64,000 nucleotides of DNA from an uncultured Alphaproteobacteria bacterium (GCA_951812805.1 CATOSZ010000001.1:1600017-1664016), one strand, 5' to 3'; positions 46,724 to 64,000 are shown, counted from the stretch's first letter. Notes: a model not told the origin generated them from the sequence alone. Made by a program: numbers and translations.

Positions 46724-46895
46724 TGCGCGTTTCGGAAAGTCCCGGACACCGATTACGGAAAGTCCTGGCCAGAGATTTCAGTAAGTCGCGGCCAGTGATT
46801 CCGGAAAGTCCCGGACAGCATCACGGGGCGATCTGAGTTCAGCTTTCGGGTGCGCCGTCTCGGCGTCTACCTCTTGGCTTTTGCCGGGAGGGGAC

Positions 46896-48466: not shown

Positions 48467-49243
48467 ATGCTGACACACCCGACCCTCGACCAGATGCAGG
48501 CCCTCGGCTTCAAGGGCATGGCAGAGGCTTACCGCGACATGGCCGAGCGAGGCCAATCATCGGAATTGAACCGCGAGGACTGGCTCGCCCTCATGCTCGA
48601 CCGCGAGGCCGCCACCCGCGCCGACAAGCGCCTCGCCAACCGCCTCAGACAGGCCAGGCTACGCTTCCCCGAGGCCTGCATCGAGGACATCGACTTCGCC
48701 GCCGAACGAGGCCTCGACCGCCGCGCCGTCCTCTCTCTCGCCCAGGGCGTCTGGCTCAAGGCACACGAGAACCTCATCGTCACCGGCCAGACCGGAACCG
48801 GCAAGACATGGCTCGCCTGTGCCATCGCCCATCAGGCCGCCAGGCTCGATCATTCCGTCCTCTACGTCCGCATGCCCAGGCTCTTCGAGGACCTCGCCAT
48901 GGCCCGCCTCGACGGCCGGCTGCCCCGCCTGATCGACCGCCTCGCCCGGGTCCAGCTGCTCGTCCTCGACGACTGGGGAACCCATGGCCTGACCGACCGC
49001 CAGCGCCTCGATCTCCTGGAAATCTGCGAGGAACGATACCACCGACGCTCAACCCTCATCACCGCGCAGATCCCCGTGACCGCCTGGCACGACCTGATCG
49101 GCGAGGCCACCATCGCCGACGCCATCCTCGACCGCGTCATCCACAACGCCCACCGCATCGGCTTGAAAGGCGACAGCATGCGAAAGAAGAAATCGACGAC
49201 CGACTTGACCCAGCCAACCACAACGGAAAACAATCCCGACTGA
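48467..49243 (+). CDS. istB: IS21-family helper ATPase IstB
   Basis: Walker [14 protein letters not shown]. Walker B LLVLDDWG. Confidence 0.9.
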
Positions 49244-49529
49244 CGGCAACAAGGCACCCGAAGCCAAACTCCCGGAACCGGCCGGGACTTTATGAAATCG
49301 GTGGCCAGGACTTACTGAAACCGCCGTCCGGAACTACCGAAATCCGCAGCCCGCCACGGAGGAAGAACTTTTCCCGTTCCTTGAAGGTCCTGGTGTCCCC
49401 GAAGGGGAGCGGTGTCCTGGGCCCGCGCACGCATCGAATCCAGTGTCGCCGCCTCGACGATCGCAGCCAGACGTCCTGCATCCAGAGCGGCGTCGAAAAT
49501 CCCCGCCAAAACTCTGGTGTCCCCAGATT

Positions 49530-51461
49530 TCAGACAGGATTATACCCGGGTATAATCGGGTAGGAGGGGTCCTCTCGGCGCCCCTCCTCCCACACCACCG
49601 GGCATACGTTCTACGTACCACGGCGGTTTCCGGTCAGTTGTAACGCGAGATACCTATCGGTCATAGGGACAAGCCCCTGGCCTTCGAACCAAGCCAGGGT
49701 CATGGCTTCGGTGGCTTGATAGCTGAGGGACTTGCGCCACCAGCCCTTGCCGGAGAGAGCCAAGATCCAGGCCCGCCGCTCGGGCACCCCGAGGCTTCGC
49801 AGGAAGTCCGCTTGCGCCTTGGTGCGCTTGCATTGCTTGAGCCGGACACAGCGCAGTTTTCGACGGATCCAGCCGTCGAGACGCCGAAGCTGGCTCGCGC
49901 AACGGGCATGGCGGAAGTACGTCACCCAGCCGGCGAGGAAGCCGTTGAGTTCGCCGACCATGCGCGCGAGGCTGATGCCCCGGTTGCGCCGGGTGATCTC
50001 GCGAACCCGTTGCTTCGCCCGCCGCAGGCTTTGCGGCGCGATGCCGAGCGATCCATCCGACAACAGCCGGTGGCCGAGGAACTTGCGGTCCCCGGCCGGA
50101 GCGACGGCACTTTTCTCCTGGTTGACCCGCAGATGCAACCTGCCTTGGAGGAATTCGGCGACCGAGGCCATCACCCGCTCGCCCGCCGCTCGAGTGCGAA
50201 CGTAGATGTTCACGTCGTCGGCATAACGGCAGAAGCTATGGCCCCGCGCCTCCAGCATCCGGTCCAGATCGTCCAGTAGAAGATTGGCCAGCAGCGGCGA
50301 CAGCGGGCCGCCTTGCGGCGTGCCCTCATGGCGCCGGATGCAGACGCCGGTCTGCATCATCCCCGCTTGCAGAAAGCGACGGATGGTGCGCAGCAGGCGC
50401 TTGTCGCCAATCCGCCCAGCCAGTCGGGACATCAGAATGTCGTGATTGACCCGGTCGAAGAACGCCTCCAGATCCAGGTCGACCACAATCCCGCGGCCTT
50501 CGGCAACGTACTTACCCGCTTGGGCCAGAGCATCGTGAGCGCTCCGGCCCGGACGGAAGCCGAAACTCGAAGCCGAGAAACCCGGATCGAGGATCGGCTG
50601 AAGGACGTGCAGGATGGCTTGCTGAACCAGACGATCCAGCACCGTCGGGATGCCCAATTGCCGCATCCCGCCTCCCGGCTTGGGGATCGAGACCCCCTTC
50701 ACCGGTTGGGGCCGATAGTCGCCTCGCGACAACGCCGCCACCAGCGCGTCCTTGTGATCGACGAGCCAGAGCCGCAGGTCTTGGATGGTCATCCCATCCA
50801 CGCCCGCCGACCCCTTGTTCGCCTTCACCCGCTTGTAGGCTTGGTTCAGGTTGGCGGAACTCACCACCCGTTCCATCAGGTCTTGCGTCAAGGCTCGTTG
50901 CCGGTCCAACGCCGTGCGCACTTGTGGCACCTCGCAGGCTCCAGTTCCGGTTCCGCCGTCACCAGGGGCCTCGGGGCGCAGCGCCTTCATCAGGGCCTCG
51001 TCGAAAAGGTCCAATTGATAGCCACCGCCTTGCTGCCGCTCCATGCTCATCGAGTTGGTCCAGACTGCTCCTTGCTATTCGGATTCGGCCCTTCGGCGCC
51101 TCGCGGCCCCTACTATGGCCTCGGCTGACTTCTCCACCGCCGTCGCTCCCCGTCGCCGGGTCGCTACTCGGTTCCCCCGAGAGCGCTGGAGATCTCCCTG
51201 GGTAAAACCTTGATCTTTCCGCCGGTCGCGGCCGGATTTACCAATGCGATGTCCGAACGACTATCGGGCATCGCCATCCATTGCTGGCTTACCCCATCGC
51301 ACCGGCCTGATATCCGGTTTCTGTTCGTCCGCTCCGGATTTTGCCTCCGGCTTCCTCCCCACCCCACCTCGCGGCGACGCAGTTGCCTTCAGCTAACGGT
51401 TCCGGTCGTTACGGCCCGTAGAGAACTTCCATCTCCTAGATCAACGCCATGCCAGGCACAC
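49530..51461 (-). mobile_element. Group II intron (class C-like, about 1.9 kb) inserted immediately 3' of a terminator hairpin; 3' boundary approximate
   Basis: The minus-strand 5' end GUGUG at 51461-51457 directly follows the hairpin plus U-run. A 479-aa RT/maturase ORF sits in domain IV. GNRA-capped D5-like hairpin at 49558-49596. 20-bp palindrome at 49538-49557. Confidence 0.6.
49611..51050 (-). CDS. Group II intron-encoded reverse transcriptase/maturase
   Basis: RT domains 0-7 (…AYKRVKANKGSAGVDGMTI…FGFRPGRSAHDAL…YADDVNIYV…) and X/maturase region. 479 aa. Confidence 0.9.
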   Translation of the reverse strand: MSMERQQGGGYQLDLFDEALMKALRPEAPGDGGTGTGACEVPQVRTALDRQRALTQDLMERVVSSANLNQAYKRVKANKGSAGVDGMTIQDLRLWLVDHKDALVAALSRGDYRPQPVKGVSIPKPGGGMRQLGIPTVLDRLVQQAILHVLQPILDPGFSASSFGFRPGRSAHDALAQAGKYVAEGRGIVVDLDLEAFFDRVNHDILMSRLAGRIGDKRLLRTIRRFLQAGMMQTGVCIRRHEGTPQGGPLSPLLANLLLDDLDRMLEARGHSFCRYADDVNIYVRTRAAGERVMASVAEFLQGRLHLRVNQEKSAVAPAGDRKFLGHRLLSDGSLGIAPQSLRRAKQRVREITRRNRGISLARMVGELNGFLAGWVTYFRHARCASQLRRLDGWIRRKLRCVRLKQCKRTKAQADFLRSLGVPERRAWILALSGKGWWRKSLSYQATEAMTLAWFEGQGLVPMTDRYLALQLTGNRRGT

Positions 51462-51488
51462 AAGAAAAGGGGCCGCCGAAGCGGCCCC
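51462..51488 (-). terminator. Rho-independent terminator (GGGGCCGC-UUCG-GCGGCCCC + UUUUCUU) serving as the intron target
   Basis: Perfect 8-bp GC stem with a UUCG loop and a U-run on the minus strand. The intron 5' end abuts it. Confidence 0.55.
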
Positions 51489-51680
51489 TAACGATGTCCT
51501 CGATAACCTCACCATTTCCCGGAACATTGGGCGGATGCTCCCGATGTCCATGATGCCGTCAGCAAGTTCATCCTCCTTCAACCACGAAGTTGGTGGAAGA
51601 TGCGCCCTCGGCGATTCCCTGTCAAGGGCAAATGTGAGGCCGTCGGAGATATCGCCCGGTCCCGCCCCGGTCGATCAACC

Positions 51681-53081
51681 ATGCAACAGCACAACACCTC
51701 CCACACCAGCTCCACCCCCCGTCCCTGGCTCGCCAACGAGAGCCTCAACCCGAGCGGCGGCCGGGAACGCTCCCCGGTCCACAAGCAGGCCGAGAGGGGC
51801 GCGGAGAGCTTTCTCGGCCTGCCCGAGGGCATCAAGCGCTTCGAGATCCTCGCCGTCCTGCGCCGGGTCGGCCTCGAGGACGGCTGGACACGCGGCCTGA
51901 TCAGCCACTACGAGCTGCTGCTCACCTACACCAGGGAGAGCGACTGGGCGCCGGGCGGACGACCCGTCGTCTGGCTCTCGGTGGAGAAGGCGGCCCAACA
52001 GCTCGGTATCTCCCCCCGCCAGGTCCGGCGCAACGAGCGGCGGATGATGGAACTGGGCGCCCTGGCCTTCCGTGATTCTCCCAACCACCGCCGCTTCGGG
52101 CGCCGCGACGGCGAGGGCCGGATCGTCGAGGCCTATGGCCTGGACCTCTCGCCCGCCGCCGCCCTGCTGCCCCGCCTGGCACGGCTGGAACAGACCCTGG
52201 TCCGGAACAGGGCCGAATGGCGCCGGCTCAAGCGGGAGATCGGCACGGCCCGCAAGGGCATCCGCGCCGCCATCGAATGGGCCCTCGAACACCAGCGCGT
52301 GAGCGACGAGATCGCCGAGACGCTCTGGCAGGGATTACAGGGCTTCGCAGAGCGGATCCGCGCCGAAACACCCCTCGATGGCTTGCGTCAACGACTGGCC
52401 GAACTCCGCGCCTTCGACGCCCGTCTGTGGCGTCTGATCGGGGAAGATCGGCCCGTGGACCCGCCCGGGGACAATTCCCCCAACGACGACAATGACTTGC
52501 CGGCCAATATGTCCGCCACGGGGGACCGATATGTCCGCCCTGGCGGACATCCGTGTCCGCCACCATTAGATGACAATACAAACCTAGTTCCTGATCAAGG
52601 AATACCGGTAAGCGGCGGCGAAGCGGCCGCCGGGCCGGCAAGGGACGAAGGGGGCGCGGCGGTGGCGGCTCACCGGCACCCGCCGGGGCGCGGCGGAGAG
52701 GAAGGGGGCCGGCACGGGGATGTGCCCCGGCCCCGGGTGTCGTGGGACAACCTGCTGGCGATCCTGCCGCCGGGCCTGCGCCATCGGCTGCCGCTCGATG
52801 AACATCCCTCCTGGTCCTCGTTGATCGACGCGGCGGGCGAGCACGCCGCCGAACTCGGCATCTCGCCCCATGCCTGGGGGGAGGCCTGCCGGGCAATGGG
52901 CCGGGAGGGGGCGGCGATGGCGGTGATCGTCGTCGCCGCCAAGCACCACCGGGGCGAGGTGCGCCGCCCCGGCGGCTACTTGCGCGCACTGACGGCGCGG
53001 GCCGGGACGGGGGAGCTGCATCTCGCCCGCTCCGTGTACGGCCTGCTCAACACAACCACGGGAAAGGAACAGAACCGATGA
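51681..53081 (+). CDS. repC: Replication initiator protein, RepC-like (HTH)
   Basis: …WLSVEKAAQQLGISPRQVRRNERRMMELGALAFRDSPNHRRFGRRDGEGRIVEAYGLDLSPAAALLPRL… matches the RepC family core. Followed by parA-parB with ATGA overlap. Confidence 0.7.
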   Translation: MQQHNTSHTSSTPRPWLANESLNPSGGRERSPVHKQAERGAESFLGLPEGIKRFEILAVLRRVGLEDGWTRGLISHYELLLTYTRESDWAPGGRPVVWLSVEKAAQQLGISPRQVRRNERRMMELGALAFRDSPNHRRFGRRDGEGRIVEAYGLDLSPAAALLPRLARLEQTLVRNRAEWRRLKREIGTARKGIRAAIEWALEHQRVSDEIAETLWQGLQGFAERIRAETPLDGLRQRLAELRAFDARLWRLIGEDRPVDPPGDNSPNDDNDLPANMSATGDRYVRPGGHPCPPPLDDNTNLVPDQGIPVSGGEAAAGPARDEGGAAVAAHRHPPGRGGEEGGRHGDVPRPRVSWDNLLAILPPGLRHRLPLDEHPSWSSLIDAAGEHAAELGISPHAWGEACRAMGREGAAMAVIVVAAKHHRGEVRRPGGYLRALTARAGTGELHLARSVYGLLNTTTGKEQNR

Positions 53082-53803
53082 CGAAGACCCACAACATTCA
53101 CCCCTTCCCGCGCCCCCTGGCGCGGAATACACAACCCCCGGGCGGACTTCGCCGGTTGGCGGTGCTCTCGCGCAAGGGCGGGGCGGGCAAGACGACGCTG
53201 GCGGTCAATCTGGCGGTGGCGGCGCAAGCGCGCGGTCTCCCCTCGGCGGTGCTGGACGTGGACCCGCAGGCCTCGGCCAGCGCCTGGGCGGAGGTCCGTG
53301 GCGCCACATCGCCGGTGGTCCGGCATTGCCCGGCGCGTCATGTCGAGCGTGTGCTGGGCGAGGCGGCCGAGGACGGCATCGCCCTGGCGCTGATCGACAC
53401 GGCGCCGCACGCGGAGGGGGCGGCGTTGACGGCGGCGCGGGCGGCCGATCTGGTGGTCATTCCCTGCCGCCCGGCGTTGTTCGATCTCTGCGCGGTCACC
53501 GACAGCCTGGACATGGCCCGGCTGGCAAATGTTCCGGCGGTGGCGGTGGTGAACGCGGCGCCGGCGCGGGGCCGGTTGGCGGCGGAGACGGCGGCGGCGC
53601 TGGCGAACCTGGGCCTGGACGCGGTGGCGCCGCCTCTCGGACAGCGCGCCGCCTTCGTGCATGCCCTGACGGCGGGCCAAGGCGTGGTGGAGTACGCGCC
53701 CCGTGGCAAGGCGGCGGGGGAGGTTCTGGCGCTGCTGGATCGATTGTTGGCCCATCCCGCCGTGCGGGCGACGGCGAAGAACAACGAAGGGAGGCTGGCA
53801 TGA
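53078..53803 (+). CDS. parA: ParA-family partition ATPase
   Basis: Deviant Walker A KGGAGKTT. 241 aa. Confidence 0.9.
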   Translation: MTKTHNIHPFPRPLARNTQPPGGLRRLAVLSRKGGAGKTTLAVNLAVAAQARGLPSAVLDVDPQASASAWAEVRGATSPVVRHCPARHVERVLGEAAEDGIALALIDTAPHAEGAALTAARAADLVVIPCRPALFDLCAVTDSLDMARLANVPAVAVVNAAPARGRLAAETAAALANLGLDAVAPPLGQRAAFVHALTAGQGVVEYAPRGKAAGEVLALLDRLLAHPAVRATAKNNEGRLA

Positions 53804-54759
53804 CGAAACAACGGAACTTGGCGGAAGCGTTCCGCTCGCTATCGCCGGAAGCAAGGACGGGCAATGGGGAAGGCCAAGCCGAACAGAGCGAACTGGAAAC
53901 GGCGCGTCCCCGGCGGACGCTGTCGGTGGCGCTGGCGGCGATCCGGGTCGAGGACCGCTTGCGGCTGGGTCTCGATGAAGCGAAGATCGAGACCATTGCC
54001 GCCTCGATGCGGGACATCGGCCTGCAATCGCCGGTGCTGCTGCGCCCCTGGCGGGAGGCGGATACGACGCGTCCCCATGCCTGGGGGGCGTCCGACGCGG
54101 GGGTGTTCGCCCTGGTGGCGGGCGCGCACCGGTTGGCGGCGGCGCGGGTGTTGGGCTGGACGGAGATCGAGGCGATGATCGTGGACGGCACGCCGGACGA
54201 AGTGCGTTTGATGGAGATCGACGAGAACCTGGCCCGGGCCGAGTTGACGGCGCTGGACCGGGCGCGGTTCCTGGCGGCGCGCAAGGCGGTGTACGAGCGG
54301 CTGTTTCCCGAAGCATGCAATGGGGGAGACCGCAAGAGCATTGAATTCGCGGAGAAAAATCGGATGGAAAACATTTCCATCCGATCCTTCGCCGACGATG
54401 CGAGCGCGAAGATGGGGCTGACGTCGCGCGCGGTTCGCCGCGCGGTGGCGATCGGCGAAGGCATCGACGACGAGGCCGCCGAAGCGCTTGCCGGGACGGC
54501 ATTGGCGGACCGGGAGGGGGATCTGCACCGCCTGTCGAAACTGTCGCGCGCGCGCCAGCGCGTGGTGGCGGGAGTTTGCGCGTCGATGCCGGGGTCGGCG
54601 ACGCTGGACAAGGCCTTGTCGGCGATCGACGGCAAGGCGGCGAGCGGCAGGGCGAGGTCATCGGAGGCGGCGCAGCTGGAGGCGCTACGCCGGGCCTGGC
54701 GGAAGGCGTGTCCCGAAGCCCGGCGGCGGTTCCGGGATGAGGTGTGCCGGGAGGCGTGA
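53800..54759 (+). CDS. parB: ParB-family partition protein
   Basis: ParB/Srx N-terminal domain plus HTH (…LQSPVLLRPW…, …GLTSRAVRRAVAIGE…). ATG 53800 after GAAGGGAGG. ATGA overlap with parA. Confidence 0.8.
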   Translation: MTKQRNLAEAFRSLSPEARTGNGEGQAEQSELETARPRRTLSVALAAIRVEDRLRLGLDEAKIETIAASMRDIGLQSPVLLRPWREADTTRPHAWGASDAGVFALVAGAHRLAAARVLGWTEIEAMIVDGTPDEVRLMEIDENLARAELTALDRARFLAARKAVYERLFPEACNGGDRKSIEFAEKNRMENISIRSFADDASAKMGLTSRAVRRAVAIGEGIDDEAAEALAGTALADREGDLHRLSKLSRARQRVVAGVCASMPGSATLDKALSAIDGKAASGRARSSEAAQLEALRRAWRKACPEARRRFRDEVCREA

Positions 54760-54764
54760 AGCAA

Positions 54765-54796
54765 GGGGGAGGAACGAATCTCTCCGTTCCTCCCCC
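54765..54796. terminator. Bidirectional terminator hairpin between convergent parB and recombinase genes
   Basis: gggggaggaacg aatctctc cgttcctccccc (perfect 12-bp stem). Confidence 0.5.
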
Positions 54797-54841
54797 TTCC
54801 GTGCCGCTGTTCATGCTGGTTTGCGATTTCCGGTTGGCCGT

Positions 54842-56422
54842 CTACGCGGCGGCAATGGCCAGGTCGACCAATCCGTCCGTGCGGGGGGTGACGGTGAGGT
54901 TCATGTCGTAACGATTGTCCGGATCGGGCGCGGCGACGATGCGTTCGATCAACGTGGAGAGGGTCATCAGCGCGTCATGCCGCTTGACCGGCGCGCGCGC
55001 GTTGGCGATGGCGGCGGCGAGCGTGTCGAGTTTATCCAGCAACCGTGCCGTCAGCACGTCGGGATCGACGGTGGGCGGGCTGGCGAGCGCGGCGTATTCG
55101 TATTTCAGCCGGGCCTCGGTGTTTTCCAGTGTCAATAGCTGGCGGTGCAAGCTCTGGGCCGCGGTGCCCTCCTGGATGGCCGAGACGATATTGGCGATGT
55201 GGCGCTGGTTGGCGGCCATGTGTTCGGCCATGGCCTCGCGGGCGGCCTGCCTGGCGGCGGCGGCTTCGGCCAGCAGGGCGGGCCAATCCTGCTGCCGCGA
55301 GAGTTGCCGGTGCAGGCTCTCCATGGCGTGCCGTTCCACGACATCGACGGCGATGCGCCGGTTCATCTCGCAGGTGCCGCTCTGGCGGCGATTGGTGCAG
55401 CCGTAGCGCCCCTTGTTGATGACGCTCATGGAGCCGCCGCAGACGGCGCAGTGGAGGAGAGGGCTGAGCGGCAGGGGGACGCGGGTGGCGTGGGCCTGGC
55501 GGCGGTCGTAGCCCTTGAGGCGGCGGGTTTGGACGGCGTCCCAGAGCGCGTCGTCGACGATGCGCAGGTTGGGGACGTCGGTCACGATCCATTCGGCGGG
55601 CGGATTATCGCGGGCGACGTGTTTGCCGGTGTCGGGGTTTCGTTTCTTGCGGGTGCGATTGAAGACGATCCGGCCGCGATAGAGTTCGTTGTTGAGGATG
55701 CCGGTGCCGCGCCGGGGCCGGCCGTTGATGGTGTAGGCGGTCCAGAGGCCCTTGCGAGGTCCGGGAATGCCATCGGCGTTGAGCAGCGCGGCGATGTTGC
55801 GCGGACTGGCGCCGTCGGCATAGAGGCGAAAGATACGGCGGACGACCTTGGCCTGTTCGCGGTTCACGGTGCGCAGGCCACGCGTGAGCTTGCCGTCGGG
55901 GCCTACTCTGTTGGCGACGTTGTATCCGTAGCTGAGCCCGCCGCCGGCGCGGCCCTCGCGGACACGGCCCATCTGGCCGCGCCGGGTCTTGCTGGCGAGG
56001 GCGACGAGTTGGCCCTGGTTCATGACGCCCTTGAAGGCGATGTGAATGGGCTGGACTTCGCCTTCCTCGATGGTGACGAGGTCGAGATCGTGAAAGACGA
56101 GGCGGTCGTAGATGCCGGAGGTGTCGGTCTGTATACGGCTGATCCGGTCGAGGGCCTCGGTGTAGATGGCGTCGAAGAGGCCGGCCTTGGCGTCCTGGAG
56201 CATTTGCGCGAGGCCGGGACGTTCGTGGAGGGTCTGGCCGGTCGAGGTTGAATCTGTATAGATGCCGGCGACGGTGCCGCCACGTGCGCGGATGCGTTCC
56301 TCGCAGAGGGCGATCTGGTCCGGGATGGAGCGCGGGTCCTGGAGGTGGGAAGAGTAGCGGGCATAGATGGCGTAACGCTGTGTCGTGCGGGCAAGCGCAG
56401 TCGGCATGATGGCATGGTTCAT
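54842..56422 (-). CDS. Large serine recombinase (resolvase/invertase catalytic domain + recombinase + zinc-ribbon domains)
   Basis: …YAIYARYSSHLQD…GGTVAGIYTD… catalytic Ser region. Recombinase domain and CxxC…C zinc ribbon (CAVCGGSM…GRYGCTNRRQSGTC). ATG 56422 after GGAGAC. Confidence 0.85.
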   Translation of the reverse strand: MNHAIMPTALARTTQRYAIYARYSSHLQDPRSIPDQIALCEERIRARGGTVAGIYTDSTSTGQTLHERPGLAQMLQDAKAGLFDAIYTEALDRISRIQTDTSGIYDRLVFHDLDLVTIEEGEVQPIHIAFKGVMNQGQLVALASKTRRGQMGRVREGRAGGGLSYGYNVANRVGPDGKLTRGLRTVNREQAKVVRRIFRLYADGASPRNIAALLNADGIPGPRKGLWTAYTINGRPRRGTGILNNELYRGRIVFNRTRKKRNPDTGKHVARDNPPAEWIVTDVPNLRIVDDALWDAVQTRRLKGYDRRQAHATRVPLPLSPLLHCAVCGGSMSVINKGRYGCTNRRQSGTCEMNRRIAVDVVERHAMESLHRQLSRQQDWPALLAEAAAARQAAREAMAEHMAANQRHIANIVSAIQEGTAAQSLHRQLLTLENTEARLKYEYAALASPPTVDPDVLTARLLDKLDTLAAAIANARAPVKRHDALMTLSTLIERIVAAPDPDNRYDMNLTVTPRTDGLVDLAIAAA

Positions 56423-56461: not shown

Positions 56462-56700
56462 CTGGTCTCCAGGCGGCCCTCCAGCCTCGCTCGGGCTCCC
56501 CTCCGATGCGCGGTGCCGGCTGCGGGTTGTATCGCGGCACGAGCGAGCTGAAACGTCGTATCGAAGACGGCGACGAAACACCCATACATTAGCGATACCC
56601 GTATTGACTGCTGGTCCCTTGGAGTCATATGCTGGCGGCCTCTTCACGGGGCCTCTTTCTACACGCTAGGAGCCCTGAAGTGATGTTGATCTCTCGAAAG
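56462..56700. repeat. Copy A of an about 240-bp duplicated divergent promoter/5'-UTR segment (copy B at 60885-61190)
   Basis: Near-identical sequence (…ggtctccaggcggccctccagcctcgctcggg…cgacgaaacacccatacattagcgatacccgtattgactg…) upstream of both SLP genes and of both divergent minus-strand genes. Confidence 0.6.
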
Positions 56701-57951
56701 CCCCAGTGGGGAGTGCCAGCCGCGGCCATGGCTGCGGCGCTGCTTGTCGCCGGATGCGGCAGCAGCACCACAGGCACTACGTCCGATGCGGCGACGCCAT
56801 CGAAGCCGGTTGCGCCGACCGAGCAGGAAAAGGCTGACGCCGCGAAACCGGTTGCGCCGAACGAGCAGGAAAAGGCTGACGCCGCGAAACCGGTTGCGCC
56901 GAACGAGCAGGAAAAGGCTGACGCCGCGAAACCGGTTGCGCCGAACGAGCAGGAAAAGGCTGACGCCGCGAAACCGGTTGCGCCGAACGAGCAGGAAAAA
57001 GCTGACGCCACGGCAGTATTGAGTAGCGACAGTTTTGTTAGTATTAGTAGCCCTCCTGCCAATCAACTGATCGCTGCGGCCACGGCAGCTGATGATGTCA
57101 CGAAGAAGGTAGCTGAGGAAATTGCGAGTGCAGCAGCCGCTACTCCTTCACTCGGCAGTGTTCACCAATCAACGGCTGCTCCCGATGCGCGTAGGAAGAA
57201 GATTGGCGTGTTGTCGTCCCGGCACTACAAGAACAATGTAGTGTTTTATGCCAAAGACGGTAATGGAAACTTTTTCCACGATTCAATAACTGACGGCACC
57301 GTCGTGAACGCTCCTATCGATGGATGGAATGGTGTTGAGTGGAAAAATAAGGATGATACCGGCACACTTCGTGTCAGGGGTTATGGAACAGAGCGCGGCG
57401 TCATGCCTCTTTTTGCCCTCGGTTATTGGCTCCATGTTCCAGACGATGCCACGAGTGCCGATTCCTATGAGGTTGGGGTCTTCGCCCTCGGCGGCGGCGG
57501 TGGTTTCAATACGGGACATCTCTCGGGCCTCACCGGCACTGCCACATACGAAGGCGATGCGGTCGGTCTGTATGCCAAGAGAGCCGCAGTCGAAGACACC
57601 CCTGACATCAAGGAGTTCACTGCCGATGTCGCTCTGACGGCGGATTTCGGCGCTAACACCGAACTCGGTAGCGTGAGCGGGACGGTATCCAACTTCAATG
57701 TCGGCGGCATGGAGAAAGCGCTGAAGTTGAGCCTCGGAAGCGCAACTATCACTGGCACCCGATACGGAGGCTTCTTCAAGGGAGGAGACACCAGCGCCGC
57801 TGGCGGGTTCTCGGGCAAGTGGGCAGGCGCGTTCTACGGCGACGGACAAGCCACCACCGACAAGCCAGCCAGCATCGTCGGGACCTTCGGCGCTGCGAAG
57901 AGTGATAAGTTGGAGAGCTTCATTGGGGCCTTCGGCCCCAAGAAGCAGTAG
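56683..57951 (+). CDS. Surface lipoprotein (SLP) with TbpB/fHbp-like C-terminal 8-strand barrel (copy 1)
   Basis: Lipobox LLVAGC. 5× in-frame 13-aa repeats (KPVAPNEQEKADAA). C-terminal domain …ATYEGDAVGLY…FTADVALTADF…LGSATITGTRYGGFFKGG…GAFYGD…IVGTFGAAKSDKLESFIGAFGPKKQ, characteristic of Slam-dependent lipoproteins. RBS AGGAG. Confidence 0.75.
   Translation: MLISRKPQWGVPAAAMAAALLVAGCGSSTTGTTSDAATPSKPVAPTEQEKADAAKPVAPNEQEKADAAKPVAPNEQEKADAAKPVAPNEQEKADAAKPVAPNEQEKADATAVLSSDSFVSISSPPANQLIAAATAADDVTKKVAEEIASAAAATPSLGSVHQSTAAPDARRKKIGVLSSRHYKNNVVFYAKDGNGNFFHDSITDGTVVNAPIDGWNGVEWKNKDDTGTLRVRGYGTERGVMPLFALGYWLHVPDDATSADSYEVGVFALGGGGGFNTGHLSGLTGTATYEGDAVGLYAKRAAVEDTPDIKEFTADVALTADFGANTELGSVSGTVSNFNVGGMEKALKLSLGSATITGTRYGGFFKGGDTSAAGGFSGKWAGAFYGDGQATTDKPASIVGTFGAAKSDKLESFIGAFGPKKQ
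56806..57000 (+). repeat. 5× tandem 39-bp in-frame repeat within SLP1
   Basis: aaaccggttgcgccgaacgagcaggaaaaggctgacgccgcg repeated head-to-tail. Confidence 0.85.
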
Positions 57952-57975
57952 CTCCGGGCGGGCTTGACTTCAAAC

Positions 57976-58029
57976 GGGCGGGGTCCGGAGAGAAACGCTC
58001 CGAGCCCCGCCCGGCTTTTTTCCGTTTTT
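57976..58029 (+). terminator. Rho-independent terminator after SLP1 (identical arrangement after SLP2 at 63437-63490)
   Basis: gggcggggtccggag agaaacg ctccgagccccgccc followed by ggcTTTTTTccgTTTTT. Confidence 0.6.
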
Positions 58030-58041
58030 AGTTTTCCATGT

Positions 58042-58102
58042 GGGCTTCTCCGAGGCGAGCGAGGCCGCTCCGGCGGAGGCCCCGCTCGCCTCGGAGAAGC
58101 CC
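58042..58102 (+). promoter_or_regulatory. 20-bp perfect inverted repeat overlapping the putative SD of Slam (also at 63503-63565)
   Basis: gggcttctccgaggcgagcg [21 nt] cgctcgcctcggagaagccc ends 5 nt before the ATG. The GGAGAAG SD candidate lies in the 3' arm. Confidence 0.5.
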
Positions 58103-58107
58103 ATCTC

Positions 58108-58760
58108 ATGCATCCGTTATCGATATTCCGTGCGCTGGCGTTGGGAACGGCGCTGGCATGTGCCGTACCAGCCTGGGCAAGACCGGATTCGACGCCACCC
58201 CGCGCCGATGCGGCCGAGGCCCAGGAACTTGTCCGCGATGGCCGGTTCGAGGACGCGCTGGAGCGTCTCCGCCCCCTGGCCGAAGGGGGCACGGTGGATG
58301 CGGCGGCGATGTTCCAGTTGGGCCTCGCGGCGGTGGGCGCGGCGCAAGAAGCGGATTTGGCGGAGGCGAAGCGCGAGGCGCTGCTGGCCGAGGCGATCGC
58401 GGCCTTCCGGTCGCTTCTGGTGCGTCGGCCGGGCCTGGTGCGGGTACGCCTGGAGCTGGCCCGTGCCTTCTTCTTGAAGGGCGAGGACGATCTTGCGAAG
58501 GCGCATTTCGAGCGCGTGCTGGCGGGCAAGCCACCGGCGGCGGTGATTCACAACGTCAACCGCCTTCTGGCGGAGATCCGCGCACGTAAGCGCTGGAGCC
58601 TCAATCTCGGCTTCGCGCTCGCGCCGGACAGCAACGTTTCGGCGGCGTCGGACAATCGGACGATCTGGATCGACACGGCCTACGGTCGTCTGCCGTTTAC
58701 CTACGAGACGGCGCCGAAGTCGGGTATCGGCGTCTCGGTGTGGGCCGGGGGTGAGTACCA
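58108..58760 (+). pseudogene. Slam-like (DUF560) surface-lipoprotein translocator, copy 1: N-terminal TPR + start of barrel, truncated by an IS1182-family fragment
   Basis: Signal peptide MHPLSIFRALALGTALACAVPAWA. TPR-like region. …KRWSLNLGFALAPDSNVSAASDNRTIWIDTAYGRLPFTYETAPKSGIGVSVWAGGEYQY, then IS-derived sequence from about 58757. Confidence 0.6.
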
Positions 58761-59340
58761 GTATCCGCGACGGACCCGGACTCGCGCATCATGCCGGTGG
58801 CCGGCGGCGGCTTCGAGCAGTGCTACAACGCCCAGGCTGCGGTGGCCGCCGGCAGCCTGCTGGTGGTCAGCGCCGACGTGGTGCAGGCGGCGAACGACAA
58901 GCAGCAGATCGAACCGACGCTCGAAGCACTCGCCGGCCTGCCGGACGGGCTTGGCGAGGTCGAGACCCTGTTGGCGGACAGCGGCTACTTCAGCCAGGCC
59001 AACGTCGAGGCCTGCGGGGAAGCGGAGATCGCGCCGCTGATCGCGCTCGGCCGGGAGCACCACCATCTTTCCTGGCGGGACCGCTTCGCCGAGGCGCCGC
59101 CAGCGCCCGAGGATCCGACGCCGCTCGAGGCGATGTGCCATCGCCTGGCCACACCCGAGGGCCGGGCGCTCTACGCGCTTCGCAAGCAGACGCCGGAGCC
59201 GGTGTTCGGCATCATCAAATCGGTGATGGGCTTGCGTCAGTTCAGCCTGCGCGGCCTCGACAAGGCGAAGGGGGAATGGACCTTGGCCACGCTCTCCTGG
59301 AACATCAAGCGGATGTTCGTCCTCAGCCACGCCTGAACGG
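58757..59340 (+). mobile_element. IS1182/IS5-superfamily transposase fragment (C-terminal about 190 aa only)
   Basis: …TDPDSRIMPVAGGGFEQCYNAQAAV…ADSGYFSQANVEAC…EPVFGIIKSVMGLRQFSLRGLDKAKGEWTLATLSWNIKRM… There is no N-terminal half upstream. Confidence 0.6.
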
Positions 59341-60001: not shown

Positions 60002-60841
60002 TCAATCGCGCCGGCGAAGTCGACCCGCCCCGGCGACGGTCTCGGCGAGGCTCCGGCCCGGCTGTAGGGTGTATCCGGTCTTCTGTTCCAGGGCCGCGTA
60101 GCGGCGGTAGAGCGCGGGCCGGGCGCGGGCGGCGATGGTTAGATCGGCTTTACTGGCGAAGAGGCAAAAGCTGCACGACAGGCGTGAGGCGCCGAGATCG
60201 TAGGCTTCGTGCCGGCGCTGCCCGGAGGCCTGGATGGTTCGCCACACCTGATCCAGGGTCATGTCGCGGATAGGCAGGAAGTCGTATACCGTGCGTTTGG
60301 CGGTGGAGAGGCGTTTGTTCAGCGCCCAAGCGTCCCGGGCCGCGCGGCTGTGGGATTCTTCGGCGCGCAGACCGAGGCAATTCATGACCAGGGGCGCGCC
60401 GAGGCCGCGGATGAACTTTTCTACTGGGGCGCGCTTTAGATCCGAAGTGCGGAACCTCTGATTCGCCGAAGGGAAGGGTGAGGCGTCCCGCCCGTCGGCG
60501 CGCAACTTGCGGCGGCGGCAACGGACCATGTCGAGCAGGTGTTTTTCCGAGCCGTCGCGCCAGACGGCTTTCACCACGTTGAGCTCATGGGCGATATTGG
60601 CCCGAATGTGGTCCTGGACGCCGGGCCATTCCACCTCGCCGAGATCGGCGTGCACGACGATGATCCGCTCGTGGGGCACGAGGGAGGAGACGACGGCGTA
60701 CATGGCCTGGCTATCCTTGCCACCTGAATGGTTGAGGACGAAGACGGCGCCGGCGGCAAGGCTCTCGTGGCGTGACGGCCCTATCGGTAAACGCGGCCCA
60801 ATCGCATGGGGATGTGAGGAGGGCGTGGTGGCGTGGCTCAT
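60002..60841 (-). CDS. PP-loop ATPase, PAPS-reductase/DndC-like family protein
   Basis: PP-loop VLNHSGGKDSQAMYAV. ATG 60841 is preceded by GGAGAC and the shared promoter repeat. Confidence 0.75.
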   Translation of the reverse strand: MSHATTPSSHPHAIGPRLPIGPSRHESLAAGAVFVLNHSGGKDSQAMYAVVSSLVPHERIIVVHADLGEVEWPGVQDHIRANIAHELNVVKAVWRDGSEKHLLDMVRCRRRKLRADGRDASPFPSANQRFRTSDLKRAPVEKFIRGLGAPLVMNCLGLRAEESHSRAARDAWALNKRLSTAKRTVYDFLPIRDMTLDQVWRTIQASGQRRHEAYDLGASRLSCSFCLFASKADLTIAARARPALYRRYAALEQKTGYTLQPGRSLAETVAGAGRLRRRD

Positions 60842-61062
60842 GGTGGATTGTCTCCGAGACTGATGTTGAGAGAGGCGAGCCCGCTGCGGTCTCCAGGCGG
60901 CCCTCCAGCCTCGCTCGGGTTCCCCTCCGATGCGCGGTGCCGGCTGCGGGTTGCAGCGCGGCACGAGCGGGCTGAAACGTCGTTTCGAAGACGGCGACGA
61001 AACACCCATACATTAGCGATACCCGTATTGACTGATGGTCCCTTGGAGCCATATGCTAGCGG

Positions 61063-61140
61063 CCTCTTCACGGGGCCTCTTCACGGGGCCTCTTCACGGG
61101 GCCTCTTCACGGGGCCTCTTCACGGGGCCTCTTCACGGGG
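61063..61140 (+). repeat. 13-bp tandem repeat (cctcttcacgggg) ×5+ in the SLP2 promoter/5' region; single copy at the equivalent position of SLP1 (56646-56660)
   Basis: ggcctcttcacgggg cctcttcacgggg cctcttcacgggg cctcttcacgggg cctcttcacgggg cctcttg…. Confidence 0.85.
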
Positions 61141-61168
61141 CCTCTTGCTAAACGCTAGGAGCCCTGAA

Positions 61169-63421
61169 GTGAAGTTGATCTCTCGAAAGCCCCAGTGGGG
61201 ACTGCCCGCCACCGCGATGGCTGCGGCGTTACTCGTCGCCGGATGCGGCGGTGGAAGTAATAAGAACGATTCGGCGGCGGCGGAGCCCCCGCCGGTGGCA
61301 TCGACCGAGCAGGAGCGGTTTGATGCGCGTGATGCGGTGAGGGCAGCCGAGAGTGCCCGGGCGGCTGCGGAGCGGGATGTTGCGGATAACGCGGTGTCTG
61401 AGATCGCGGCAGTATTGAATGCCGTCGAAGGTGAAGTGGCGAGGGCCAATGAGGCCGTTGACGCGGCCAGACTCGCAGGCACGGATGATGCCAGAGCTTC
61501 GGAGGCTGCCGACAGCGCTGCGTCTGAAGTAGAGATGGTGAACCAGGCGATGCAAGAAGTAGAAGCGGCGAGGCTTGCGCTGGACCAGGCGACTGCCGAT
61601 TACGAACAGGCCACGAGGGATGCGGACATTGAGACGCAGGCAGGCGCGACGGTCATCCAGACGGCGGCAAACACTCTGAAGGACGCAGCCGAGAACGCGA
61701 GTATGGCAGCGGCGACGGCCATGGAAAATGCCAACGTTGCCCTTGACGAGGCCATGTCATTCGCCCAGATGGCGGCTGACGCTGCGGAGCCGGTGGCATC
61801 GACCGAGCAGGAGCGGTTTGATGCGCGTGATGCGCGGAGTCTTGCTGAGGACGCACGTGCGGAAGCGCTGCAGATAGTTACCGACGACGCGGCATCTCGC
61901 TCAGAAAGATACGCGGACGTCGCTTCTGAAGCGCAAGAAAGGGCTAGGGCCGCTCGCACAGATGCTAGGACGGCTTCGGAGCAGAGTGAGAGGGCGTCCG
62001 AGCAAGCGGAGATCGTGAGGTCCGCAAGGGCTGCCCTGGATGAGGCTATTGCCGAGTACGAAAGGGCAACGCAGGATGCGGACATTGAAACGCAGCAAGG
62101 CGCGAGGGCCATCACGGATGCTGCGAACAACTTGAGGGACGCTGCCGACACGGCAAGGACGAGTGTCGAAGCGGCCATCGTCTCCGCCGAGACTTTTGCC
62201 GAGGAGGCAACCGCCGCTGCGGGTACGCATGTGCTTGAGCTGTTCAGGACGGCGAATGCATACGGCGAAGAGGCCGCAGAGCAAGATGCTTTCATCGAGG
62301 CGGCCGGTGAAGCGATTGTGGGGGCAGCCAATGCTAATAACGCCGACACCGTTTCGGTCACCCCTATCTGGAACAATGTGCCGGTCAACGGCGATACGCC
62401 AGCCGACGTGGATTTGAAATTCCAAGTTGATGACATCGAAGTAGACAGCGACAACGTGAGGGTCATCGACCCGCTCGGCGACTTCGAGCATGGGCGTGAG
62501 ATGGAGGTGGAAAATGGGTTCAAGCTAATCGTCTTCACGGACAAAAAGCAGGCCGATGCTCCAAGAGAAGGAGTAACAGCAATAGAAGCCAAGGAATTCA
62601 ATACCGCCTCGGTCCGTCTCGGCAAAGTCCAAGGCGACAGGAGCGATCCTGCTAACGTCACCTTCTACGACGAGGAGGATTTAGTTGGTGGGGCATCGAG
62701 GGATTTTCCAGATGCCGCGTACGCGTATTCTGGAGGCTTGACATGCCCAGATGCCACAGTTTGCTCCATCGAAACGGACGGCACTGTCGTGGGCTACGTG
62801 TTCACGGGGAAACGAGAGGCCGTAGCTGCTGTTTCAGCAAGAACTGGGAGGGAGCAAAACGACGACTACCTCTCGTTCGGCATCTGGTTGAAGGGGGATA
62901 ACGTCAGTAATCTTGCCTTCGGTGCTTTCGAGGACGGTGGCGATCCGATTGGGACAACAGATGGCTTAACGGGGATCACGGGCAACGCGACCTACAGTGG
63001 TTCGGCTGCTGGTGCCCATCACAAGACCGGCGAAGGCGTGAACTGGTTCGATGGCAAAGCGAGCCTGACTGCCAAGTTCGGGGATGCTTCGAGTCGGGGT
63101 ACCGTCGAAGGTGATATTAGCGAGATCAGAGTGGGTGGTGGCGCAGCACTGGAGGACAAGATTCGCCTGCAAACGACTCCTATTGGGGTCAGTGATACTG
63201 TTGCGGCCGGTGTGGCTGTGATGGGTTCGATCCTGGATGCGAATTCGAACGTACAGCACAAGTTCGAGGGCACGTGGAACGCGACTTTCTACGGGCCGGA
63301 TACGAACGATGAGGAAGAGAACATCGCCCCCAAGGCGATTGGCGGCACTTTTGGCGTCAGTGATACCACCGATGAGATTACCGAGAGCTTCATTGGTGCC
63401 TTCGGCGCCAAGAAGCAGTAG
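61169..63421 (+). CDS. Surface lipoprotein (SLP) copy 2: conserved signal/lipobox and C-terminal TbpB-like barrel, divergent Ala/Glu/Asp-rich repeat-containing middle
   Basis: GTG start (the ATG of copy 1 is AAG here). Lipobox LLVAGC. Two about 170-aa internal repeats (VASTEQERFDARDA…ATxDADIETQxGA…). C-terminus …NATFYGPD…IGGTFGVSDTTDEITESFIGAFGAKKQ. Confidence 0.75.
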   Translation: MKLISRKPQWGLPATAMAAALLVAGCGGGSNKNDSAAAEPPPVASTEQERFDARDAVRAAESARAAAERDVADNAVSEIAAVLNAVEGEVARANEAVDAARLAGTDDARASEAADSAASEVEMVNQAMQEVEAARLALDQATADYEQATRDADIETQAGATVIQTAANTLKDAAENASMAAATAMENANVALDEAMSFAQMAADAAEPVASTEQERFDARDARSLAEDARAEALQIVTDDAASRSERYADVASEAQERARAARTDARTASEQSERASEQAEIVRSARAALDEAIAEYERATQDADIETQQGARAITDAANNLRDAADTARTSVEAAIVSAETFAEEATAAAGTHVLELFRTANAYGEEAAEQDAFIEAAGEAIVGAANANNADTVSVTPIWNNVPVNGDTPADVDLKFQVDDIEVDSDNVRVIDPLGDFEHGREMEVENGFKLIVFTDKKQADAPREGVTAIEAKEFNTASVRLGKVQGDRSDPANVTFYDEEDLVGGASRDFPDAAYAYSGGLTCPDATVCSIETDGTVVGYVFTGKREAVAAVSARTGREQNDDYLSFGIWLKGDNVSNLAFGAFEDGGDPIGTTDGLTGITGNATYSGSAAGAHHKTGEGVNWFDGKASLTAKFGDASSRGTVEGDISEIRVGGGAALEDKIRLQTTPIGVSDTVAAGVAVMGSILDANSNVQHKFEGTWNATFYGPDTNDEEENIAPKAIGGTFGVSDTTDEITESFIGAFGAKKQ

Positions 63422-63576
63422 GTCCTGGCGGGCTTGACTTTAAACGGGCGGGGTCCGGAGAGAAGCACTCCGAGCCCCGCCCGGCTTTTTTCCGTTTTGT
63501 TTTTCCATGTGGGCTTCTCCGAGGCGAGCGGGGCCGCTCCGGTGGAGGCCCCGCTCGCCTCGGAGAAGCCCATCTC

Positions 63577-64000
63577 ATGTATCCGTTATCGATATTCCGT
63601 GCGTTGGCGTTGGGAACGGCGCTGGCATGTGCCGTACCAGCCTGGGCAGCGCCGGATCCGGCACGGCCCAGCGCCGATGTGGCCGAGGCCCAGGAACTTG
63701 TCCGCGATGGCCGGTTCGAGGACGCCCTGAAGCGTCTCCGCCCCCTGGCCGAAGGGGGCACGGTGGATGCGGCGGCGATGTTCCAGTTGGGCCTCGCGGC
63801 GGTGGGCGCGGCGCAAGAAGCGGATTTGGCGGAGGCGAAGCGCGAGGCGCTGCTGGCCGAGGCGATCGCGGCCTTCCGGTCGCTTCTGGTGCGTCGGCCG
63901 GGCCTGGTGCGGGTACGCCTGGAGCTGGCCCGTGCCTTCTTCTTGAAGGGCGAGGACGATCTTGCGAAGGCGCATTTCGAGCGCGTGCTGGCAGGCAAGC
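63577..64000 (+). CDS. Slam-like (DUF560) translocator copy 2, 3' end cut by the window edge
   Basis: MYPLSIFRALALGTALACAVPAWA… is more than 90% identical to copy 1 over the available 141 codons and is not interrupted within the window. Confidence 0.7.
   Translation, partial: MYPLSIFRALALGTALACAVPAWAAPDPARPSADVAEAQELVRDGRFEDALKRLRPLAEGGTVDAAAMFQLGLAAVGAAQEADLAEAKREALLAEAIAAFRSLLVRRPGLVRVRLELARAFFLKGEDDLAKAHFERVLAGK

Follow-up and report, generated by a model that had tools for sequence, protein, structure and literature searches.

A 13-nucleotide tandem repeat at the predicted 5' end of a surface lipoprotein transcript looks like a leader element common to surface-protein genes of uncultured Proteobacteria

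Nearly all that is known of repeat-driven phase variation comes, to our knowledge, from a few pathogens with small genomes, and most of the repeats have units of 1-7 nt. In promoter-spacer contingency loci, such as the TA repeat of hifA/hifB in Haemophilus influenzae and, in Neisseria, the homopolymers of porA, opc and fetA and the TAAA repeat of nadA, the tract has a unit of 1-4 nt and lies either between the -35 and -10 hexamers or 5' of them. Leaders that mask the Shine-Dalgarno sequence, including RNA thermometers, are exemplified by the cssA leader of Neisseria meningitidis with its 8-bp tandem repeat, the fHbp leader, ROSE and fourU; fHbp is a Slam-dependent lipoprotein. The (ATCTTTC)n repeat of hmw1A and hmw2A in H. 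influenzae forms part of the transcribed 5'-UTR, where it base-pairs with a G-rich arm and is a target of RNase III processing (PMC12721329). The length of this heptanucleotide repeat, which is also covered in PMC8262952, is inversely related to the adhesin level, and its unit number differs at the two paralogous loci (PMC12721329).

We analyzed a 64,000-nt stretch of DNA (the window) in which two paralogous lipoprotein genes, SLP1 and SLP2, are preceded by different numbers of the 13-nt unit CCTCTTCACGGGG. A literature search found neither this 13-mer nor a described 13-bp 5'-UTR repeat switch, and the closest known system is the hmw1A/hmw2A repeat. In both systems the promoter and the start codon of a surface-protein gene (an adhesin gene in hmw) are separated by a tandem repeat, and two paralogous loci of the same genome carry different unit numbers. 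The hmw repeat is transcribed in the 5'-UTR, as is predicted for the 13-mer from the position of the promoter; its pyrimidine-rich units pair with a downstream G-rich arm, as is likewise predicted for the 13-mer; and, by analogy, the 13-mer would act as a rheostat on the level of a surface protein and not as a frame switch. The two differ in that the 13-mer unit has 13 nt, is GC-rich and is partly self-complementary. Its G-rich partner is the ribosome-binding site itself, which is matched by about one unit, against roughly ten units in the hmw hairpin. In 15 genomes, the identical 13-mer serves dozens of genes for proteins as unrelated as Slam lipoproteins, autotransporters and YadA-type adhesins.

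The likeness to the other two groups is more partial. Like the promoter-spacer loci, the array is an intergenic simple repeat near surface-antigen genes whose length would be altered by slippage, but its unit has 13 nt and it lies 3' of the -10 hexamer; the repeat does not stand between promoter elements, whose spacer is a constant 18 nt. Like the thermometer leaders, it provides an upstream pyrimidine stretch for which pairing with the ribosome-binding site of a gene for a surface factor is predicted. In the 13-mer leaders, however, the masking sequence is multiplied up to 36 times, and the predicted stem of 10-12 bp is GC-rich and would not obviously melt.

The features of the two loci are listed in Table 1. 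As reported by Tandem Repeats Finder, the array upstream of SLP2 extends over 61061-61146 with a period of 13, 6.6 copies, 100% matches and a score of 172; it is the top-scoring non-coding tandem array in the window and lies far above chance expectation. The first-pass annotation had the unit, its strand and its place right but counted five copies, whereas six full units and a 6-nt partial unit are present, and its own interval of 61063-61140 amounts to 78 bp, or 6 x 13. The leader of SLP1 reads GG-CCTCTTCACGGGG-CCTCTT, equal to 1.6 copies, with the full unit at 56639-56651, and an exact search of the window for the 13-mer gave no significant match beyond this unit and the SLP2 array. A single occurrence had been claimed upstream of SLP1; this holds for the full unit, which is followed by the partial CCTCTT, so the two leaders differ by five units. 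When the two loci were aligned, a single clean 65-bp gap, exactly five units, was left in very similar surrounding DNA, the identity being 96% over the 194 nt upstream of the repeat and 91% over the 124 nt that run from the last unit into the signal peptide. The earlier description of the promoter segments as otherwise near-identical was thus borne out, whereas a distance of about 25 bp between repeat and ribosome-binding site was not: from the end of the last full SLP2 unit, 16 nt lead to AGGAG (61157-61161) and 28 nt to the GTG start at 61169. The exact sequence of the SLP2 locus is found on two more contigs of the same metagenome, all three being 100% identical, so the array is not an assembly artefact.

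Table 1. Positions of the SLP1 and SLP2 features, counted from the first nucleotide of the window
Feature	Position	Strand	Details
Sigma-70-type promoter of SLP2	61028-61057	+	TTGACT (61028-61033), 18-nt spacer, TATGCT (61052-61057)
Identical promoter 5' of SLP1	56604-56633	+	TTGACT-18 nt-TATGCT; promoter scan
Six perfect head-to-tail CCTCTTCACGGGG units 5' of SLP2	61063-61140	+	Exact search and Tandem Repeats Finder
Partial terminal unit CCTCTT, 6 nt	61141-61146	+	Anti-Shine-Dalgarno arm of the predicted leader hairpin
One full unit and partial CCTCTT 5' of SLP1	56639-56657	+	Exact search
Conserved upstream module	60888-61062	+	SLP1 counterpart 56464-56638 (96%); also in L067
Predicted leader hairpin	61136-61166	+	Minimum-energy and centroid structures
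SLP2, 750-aa lipoprotein	61169-63421	+	GTG start, lipobox LVAGC
SLP1, 422/423-aa lipoprotein paralogue	56680/56683-57951	+
Slam gene (5' part) after SLP2	63577-64000	+	Runs off the window end
PAPS-reductase-family gene, divergent	60002-60841	-	327-bp intergenic region common with SLP2

Within the conserved upstream module, which is common to the divergent PAPS-reductase gene, a palindrome, GAAACG-T-CGTTTC, was seen by eye at 60974-60986, about 42 nt 5' of the -35 hexamer, and again with one mismatch at 56550-56562; it could be an operator. A repeat tool found no inverted repeats of 10 nt or more in the module, the arms of the palindrome being below that length.

TTGACT-18-TATGCT was the only sigma-70-type match in each of the two intergenic regions, and in both window copies 5 nt separate the end of the -10 hexamer from the array. 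With the usual 7-nt distance, transcription is predicted to start at about 61062-61064, at the first unit, which would make the array the 5' end of the leader. The gap between the SLP2 array and AGGAG (10-16 nt) is too short for another promoter, leaving no promoter room 3' of the array. The idea that each 13-bp step alters promoter geometry does not fit this arrangement: the array lies 3' of the -10 hexamer, at the predicted start, and would belong to the leader RNA. An intrinsic terminator flagged by a scan at the SLP1 hairpin was rejected, as the count of such calls was below the shuffled expectation and its T-run is weak in SLP1 and lacking in SLP2.

The same geometry was seen in other genomes. 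We aligned upstream sequences at the first TTCACGGGG for the 61 arrays with enough upstream sequence, and in 55 of them a sigma-70-type -10 hexamer ends 9-13 nt, mostly 11-12 nt, before this point. Forty-two of these 55 promoters carry an extended -10 TG, and random positions in the same loci scored equally well in 1.1% of cases. The spacing between -10 hexamer and array is kept by at least 12 unrelated promoter sequences. This fixed spacing across unrelated promoters is the strongest available argument, drawn from comparison of sequences, that the array would start the transcript.

We next consider the structures predicted for these leaders. The segment GGGGCCUC is self-complementary if G-U pairs are allowed, so neighboring units are predicted to fold into 8-bp hairpins with a UUCAC loop. 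The fold of the SLP2 leader has an energy of -56.9 kcal/mol (z = -4.2 against shuffles). In its 3' hairpin, CGGGGC-C-UCUUGC, which comprises the end of unit 6 and the partial unit, pairs with GC-U-AGGAGCCCUG; this predicted pairing of 61136-61148 with GCUAGGAGCCCUG (61154-61166) masks the Shine-Dalgarno sequence AGGAG, which in the minimum-energy fold is paired with UCUU and C of the 61141-61146 segment. The mean unpaired probability of the SLP2 Shine-Dalgarno bases was 0.22 on folding. Among 49 folded leaders, the mean pairing probability of the Shine-Dalgarno sequence was 0.90, and the pairing partner was repeat-derived in 45. The median energy of the unit was -18.0 kcal/mol against the real ribosome-site regions and -15.9 kcal/mol against control ribosome sites in the same loci (p = 0.055), so that, in these models, complementarity beyond that of any Shine-Dalgarno region is borderline. 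A search against Rfam 15 gave no family over the array in the window at E <= 1, and no match in 15 array-bearing loci at gathering thresholds.

Folding of the window leader with 1-12 units gave a flat predicted Shine-Dalgarno accessibility of 0.22, and an equilibrium accessibility dependent on unit number was rejected for this leader; equilibrium folding offers no reason why one and six units should differ. In two other leader types, the modelled accessibility alternates between odd and even unit numbers (0.06/0.31 and 0.04/0.15), a weak effect that is suggestive at the level of modelling.

The 13-mer repeat is not a private simple sequence repeat of the SLP2 locus. Scanning databases with 1.6 units, GGCCTCTTCACGGGGCCTCTT, as the query gave four contigs among the metagenome contigs and 57 loci in 15 genomes in the collection with one genome per species, where about 0.3 matches to this 21-mer are expected by chance (an estimate). 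By their labels, 11 of the 15 array-bearing genomes are uncultured Alphaproteobacteria, one is Rhodospirillales, two are Paracoccaceae and one is Gammaproteobacteria. An exact 22-mer of the promoter had no match in the species-representative genomes, and the genome of the window is therefore not among them; a scan of viral contigs for the repeat found none. Together with the four metagenome contigs and the window, these 15 genomes hold 64 arrays of 1-36 units.

Wherever a downstream gene could be called (61 arrays), the array is on the strand of that gene and ends 4-84 nt before its start codon, and in all 61 evaluable cases it was found only at the 5' end of an exported-protein gene. Forty-two of the 61 downstream products have a lipobox, and most of the others have a Sec signal peptide. 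Jackhmmer found the C-terminal barrel of SLP2 in at least 22 of these products, and Pfam identified TbpB_B_D in five, FHBP_C in two, the autotransporter beta-domain in five, the YadA head in three and the YadA anchor in two, so the product types identified behind the arrays are Slam-type lipoproteins, classical autotransporters and YadA-type adhesins. Taken at the sequence level, the 13-mer looks like a leader element that SLP2 has in common with at least 60 other genes for surface proteins, spread over 15 genomes of uncultured Proteobacteria. In more distant SLP homologues the array is missing, and one GAGGCCTCTTCA motif lies immediately 5' of GAGGAG; the 13-nt unit may thus have arisen by amplification of an older anti-Shine-Dalgarno element.

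Two further observations concern array-bearing contigs. On OZ241752.1 (L014, L018, L038, L043, L046 and L051), 9-10 lipoprotein genes share a short, mostly degenerate array with one exact unit of about three and a constant unit number, followed by a much longer conserved leader of 73-84 nt (TAAGAGTAGAGGCCTCGTAAGAGGTCTCTCACTGGAGGCTCCCC...). Contigs also tend to stop at or within the 13-mer repeats, as at the end of L002 (window position 56470), the start of L003, the end of L005 and the start of L012; a 32-kb contig ends at the edge of the duplicated promoter module, and three short-read metagenome contigs start or stop inside an array. Given these breaks, the starts of surface-protein genes are likely under-assembled in short-read MAGs.

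The number of units differs between otherwise closely similar sequences. Within one metagenome, one promoter type carries 1.6, 4.6 or 6.6 units (SLP1, L067 and SLP2, respectively). L067, which was reached via a 90%-identity relative of the PAPS-reductase gene on another contig of this metagenome, is identical to SLP2 over about 130 nt upstream and about 65 nt downstream of the array and has 4.6 units where SLP2 has 6.6. L011 and L048, in the same genome, have identical promoters and leaders with 7 and 10 units, respectively; L019 and L052 have 32.7 and 35.7 units, both 100% pure, between flanks that are 94.5-96.5% identical; and L008 and L033 have 11 and 8 units between near-identical flanks. 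Judged from such near-identical flanks with different unit counts, the unit number changes much faster than the surrounding sequence. The arrays are also homogeneous, with 590 of 700 units exact and only 25 deviating internal units (about 96% internal purity), as would be expected for slippage. The variation seen is between paralogous or related copies, the three contigs with the exact SLP2 locus showing one unit number. Used as look-up queries, the proteins of the PAPS-reductase and recombinase genes led back only to contigs that match the window at 100% identity or to the L067 contig, and to no independent copy of the locus. These comparisons uphold the view that the unit number is labile (1, 4 and 6 on one promoter type; 7/10, 33/36 and 8/11 in near-identical pairs). 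The annotation had also taken the downstream genes for surface antigens, with which the lipobox, the adjoining Slam gene and the TbpB/fHbp-like, autotransporter and YadA-type products agree. With a labile unit number in front of surface-protein genes, level or phase variation of a surface protein driven by slippage is plausible, the more so in view of the comparisons between genomes, and a reasonable reading of the sequences.

SLP1 and SLP2 share the N-terminus M(M/K)LISRKPQWG...AAALLVAGC, which includes the lipobox cysteine (LLVAGC). The N-terminal part of SLP2 is Ala-rich and helical, and the C-terminal part is a putative handle and barrel resembling those of TbpB and fHbp. The two genes agree in promoter, leader, signal peptide and 3' end, whereas their bodies have diverged, with 31% identity in the C-terminal barrel; identity between the modules is 91-94% over the last ~40 nt of the SLP genes, the intergenic region and the beginning of the following gene. 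AlphaFold modelled the C-terminal 321 residues of SLP2 as a confident eight-stranded barrel (pLDDT 80-94), and the best structural matches of this model were the TbpB C-lobe and fHbp (E = 6e-5, probability 1.0), with a TM-score of only ~0.3-0.4. The sequence of the barrel gave nothing meaningful against the PDB, and Pfam and NCBIfam gave no direct match for the SLP proteins of the window. L010, a jackhmmer relative, scored 79.5 bits against NCBIfam NF041636 ("Slam-dependent surface lipoprotein"), just short of the 80-bit cut-off, and other array-linked relatives match PF01298 and PF08794. The Slam gene after SLP2, read in L001 and L002, which are 100% identical to the window, encodes 454 aa with PF04575 SlipAM and TPR_Slam. 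The lipobox, the adjoining Slam gene and the modelled TbpB/fHbp-like barrel therefore mark SLP1 and SLP2 as putative Slam-type surface lipoproteins. As in known Slam-dependent lipoproteins (TbpB, LbpB, fHbp and HpuA; NF041636, PF01298 and PF08794; Slam PF04575), a C-terminal barrel, here modelled as TbpB/fHbp-like, is followed by a Slam gene. The array-linked proteins differ from these in that their N-terminal parts are long Ala-rich helical regions and not transferrin-binding lobes, and their hosts are uncultured Alphaproteobacteria and not Neisseria, Moraxella or Pasteurellaceae. A homologue search with SLP2 returned 16 proteins, none above 43% identity and no close orthologues for strain comparison; the same search with SLP1 returned SLP1 itself only.

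Several other features of the SLP genes were seen. The Slam gene after SLP1 (58108-58760) has an intact signal peptide and TPR part, in which TPR_Slam was found, and loses sense after ~217 codons; next comes a DDE_Tnp_1 transposase fragment (58791-59336). SLP1, the one-unit copy, is thus without its own intact Slam. Between SLP stop and Slam start, both modules keep a 26-bp inverted repeat with an 11-nt loop (63510-63572 and 58041-58103; 100% and 96% complementary), a very strong hairpin that is perhaps a terminator, attenuator or processing site and is the source of spurious microRNA-like Rfam matches. The coding region of SLP1 contains at 56793-57009 an in-frame 42-bp tandem repeat (5.1 copies, 97% identity) that encodes KPVAPNEQEKADAA repeats directly after the lipobox; this is a possible second length-variable tract, with equal repeat numbers in L001 and L002, which are identical contigs. 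Within SLP2, the helical Ala-rich part is internally duplicated over ~460-500 bp at 71-76% identity (61291-61399/61789-61897 and 61568-61722/62024-62178).

The SLP-Slam modules resemble cassettes, in which 5' and 3' parts conserved at 91-96% enclose divergent protein bodies. The 5' part holds promoter, leader and signal peptide (56464-56760 and 60888-61249), and the 3' part holds gene end, spacer and Slam start (57913-58305 and 63383-63774). At L067 5600-5985, an SLP2-type leader is joined to an SLP1-like N-terminus, and in other genomes autotransporters and lipoproteins alike are headed by one 5' module that includes the first codons (MTVSK/MSVSK). These arrangements point to the apparent recombination of 5' modules onto different surface genes.

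The neighborhood of the SLP genes encodes a large serine recombinase, ParB, ParA, a RepC-type replication protein and group II intron reverse transcriptases. In the window at ~49000-56422 (via L068 8664-15581), ParB, ParA and the RepC-type initiator adjoin the serine recombinase, and two group II intron reverse transcriptases lie beyond. This gene content indicates that the SLP region is probably a repABC-type plasmid-like or chromid-like segment; repABC replicons point to an alphaproteobacterium. A 23-bp direct repeat of ~3.7 copies (also read as 46 bp x 1.9) was found at 46733-46818, and the same kind of 23-bp repeat abuts an IS21-family IstA/IstB pair at L067 4155-4243, so that the repeat probably represents multiple terminal repeats of an IS21-type element.

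The explanation that we favor, at somewhat better than even odds in our judgment, is that the array, transcribed as part of the leader and prone to slippage, tunes the expression of surface proteins via RNA structure at the ribosome-binding site. Transcription would start 0-2 nt before the first unit from TTGACT-18-TATGCT, placing the array at the 5' end of the SLP2 leader. Each unit would contribute a pyrimidine stretch, CCUCUU, which resembles an anti-Shine-Dalgarno sequence, and a G run; adjacent units would fold into GC-rich hairpins of the form GGGGCCUC-UUCAC-GGGGCCUC, and the last unit with the partial unit would pair with the ribosome-binding site AGGAGCCCUG. Slipped-strand mispairing would add or remove whole units and so change the length and structure of the leader, with altered mRNA fate or translation initiation as the inferred consequence and heritable yet reversible differences in the amount of surface lipoprotein as the outcome. 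As the module of promoter, array, masked ribosome site and signal peptide heads many surface-protein genes, the whole would form a multi-locus contingency system. Directly observed are the repeat, where it stands relative to promoter-like elements, its association with exported-protein genes only and the rapid change in copy number between near-identical sequences; transcription start, RNA folding and any effect on expression are put forward here as inferred from them. The 13-nt unit is long compared with those of classical contingency repeats, and this counts against reading the leader as a dial.

A bolder form of this explanation, to which we give about one chance in four, is that the 13-mer is a dedicated, sequence-specific cis-regulatory RNA module of the surface proteome in uncultured, probably host-associated Proteobacteria, either as the site of a trans-acting factor or as a toggle. 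As a toggle, the units would pair two by two through the self-complementary GGGGCCUC; an odd or even number could decide whether the last unit masks the ribosome-binding site, and each single-unit slip would flip translation. The narrower proposal that the array is a multimerised binding site for a factor acting in trans to co-regulate the surface proteome, for example an RNA- or DNA-binding protein or a small RNA, the unit number setting the sensitivity of each gene, seems to us improbable. The unit is exactly conserved over many genes, promoters and genomes while the flanks differ, it is associated exclusively with surface-protein genes, and it has a fixed position at the predicted transcript start, all of which would suit a recognition site. 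However, our searches turned up neither a candidate factor nor a small-RNA gene complementary to the repeat (each of the 64 arrays has the sense orientation, and the window has no other significant match), no Rfam family matches, and a period of 13 bp is out of step with the helical repeat of DNA. A neutral minisatellite, that is, a hairpin-prone leader that is tolerated in the untranslated region, slips with no regulatory effect and is spread by duplication or recombination of the promoter-leader module, is unlikely, though less so than such a binding site. It would account for unit numbers of 1-36 with no visible constraint, for the predicted masking of the window's ribosome site irrespective of unit number, for the co-duplication of promoter, leader and first codons as one module, and for distant SLP homologues that do with a single GAGGCCTCTTCA and no array. 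It accords poorly with the exact 13-mer behind at least 12 unrelated promoters in lineages labelled Alphaproteobacteria, Paracoccaceae and Gammaproteobacteria, with the placement of 61 of 61 evaluable arrays at the 5' ends of exported-protein genes, and with an internal array purity of ~96%.

Two further mechanisms fare far worse. In the first, changes in unit number would alter the distance among promoter elements, or that from an activator site to the core promoter. In the window, however, both hexamers lie 5' of the array and are separated by a normal 18-nt spacer on which the unit number has no bearing, the gap of 10-16 nt to the ribosome site has no room for a downstream promoter, and the geometry recurs at 55 of 61 arrays. 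We regard a spacing switch as very improbable, even though 13-bp steps would rotate or displace sites 3' of the array relative to upstream sites and the conserved 194-nt upstream module could hold regulator sites. A coding-frame switch is slightly less credible still. Translation would here start at the ATG in the TATGCT box (61053; 56629 in SLP1), which has GGAG 4 nt before it at 61053, and read through the array, the unit number modulo 3 setting the frame. The distances to the SLP starts (51, 90 and 116 nt) would put 1 and 4 units in frame and 6 out, and the array is open in three sense frames, with an ORF listed at 56629-57951. This ATG, however, lies within the -10 hexamer, 5' of the predicted transcription start; the product would have at least 17 residues before an already complete lipoprotein signal peptide; the corresponding region in other lineages is without ATG and has stop codons, e.g. 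GTGGTAGGGTAGGG; and a good AGGAG-7 nt-GTG start is available downstream. On these grounds, we rejected a frame switch from the -10-box ATG. The array being open in all three sense frames also gives rise to a long spurious ORF at 60833-63421.

The breadth of the 13-mer family makes the SLP2 array more than a single-locus simple sequence repeat or a one-off promoter quirk. In practice, short-read assemblies break at the arrays, exactly where surface-protein genes begin. If the favored leader-repeat explanation is true, the repeat would be a second system, beside hmw of H. influenzae, in which transcribed repeats act via RNA structure, and the unit CCTCTTCACGGGG would provide a simple sequence tag for finding the variable surface proteome. 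In uncultured, symbiont-like Proteobacteria, one conserved 13-nt repeat would then be the common 5'-leader of dozens of genes per genome for adhesins, autotransporters and Slam lipoproteins, and contingency-locus biology would extend to non-pathogenic, uncultivated bacteria.
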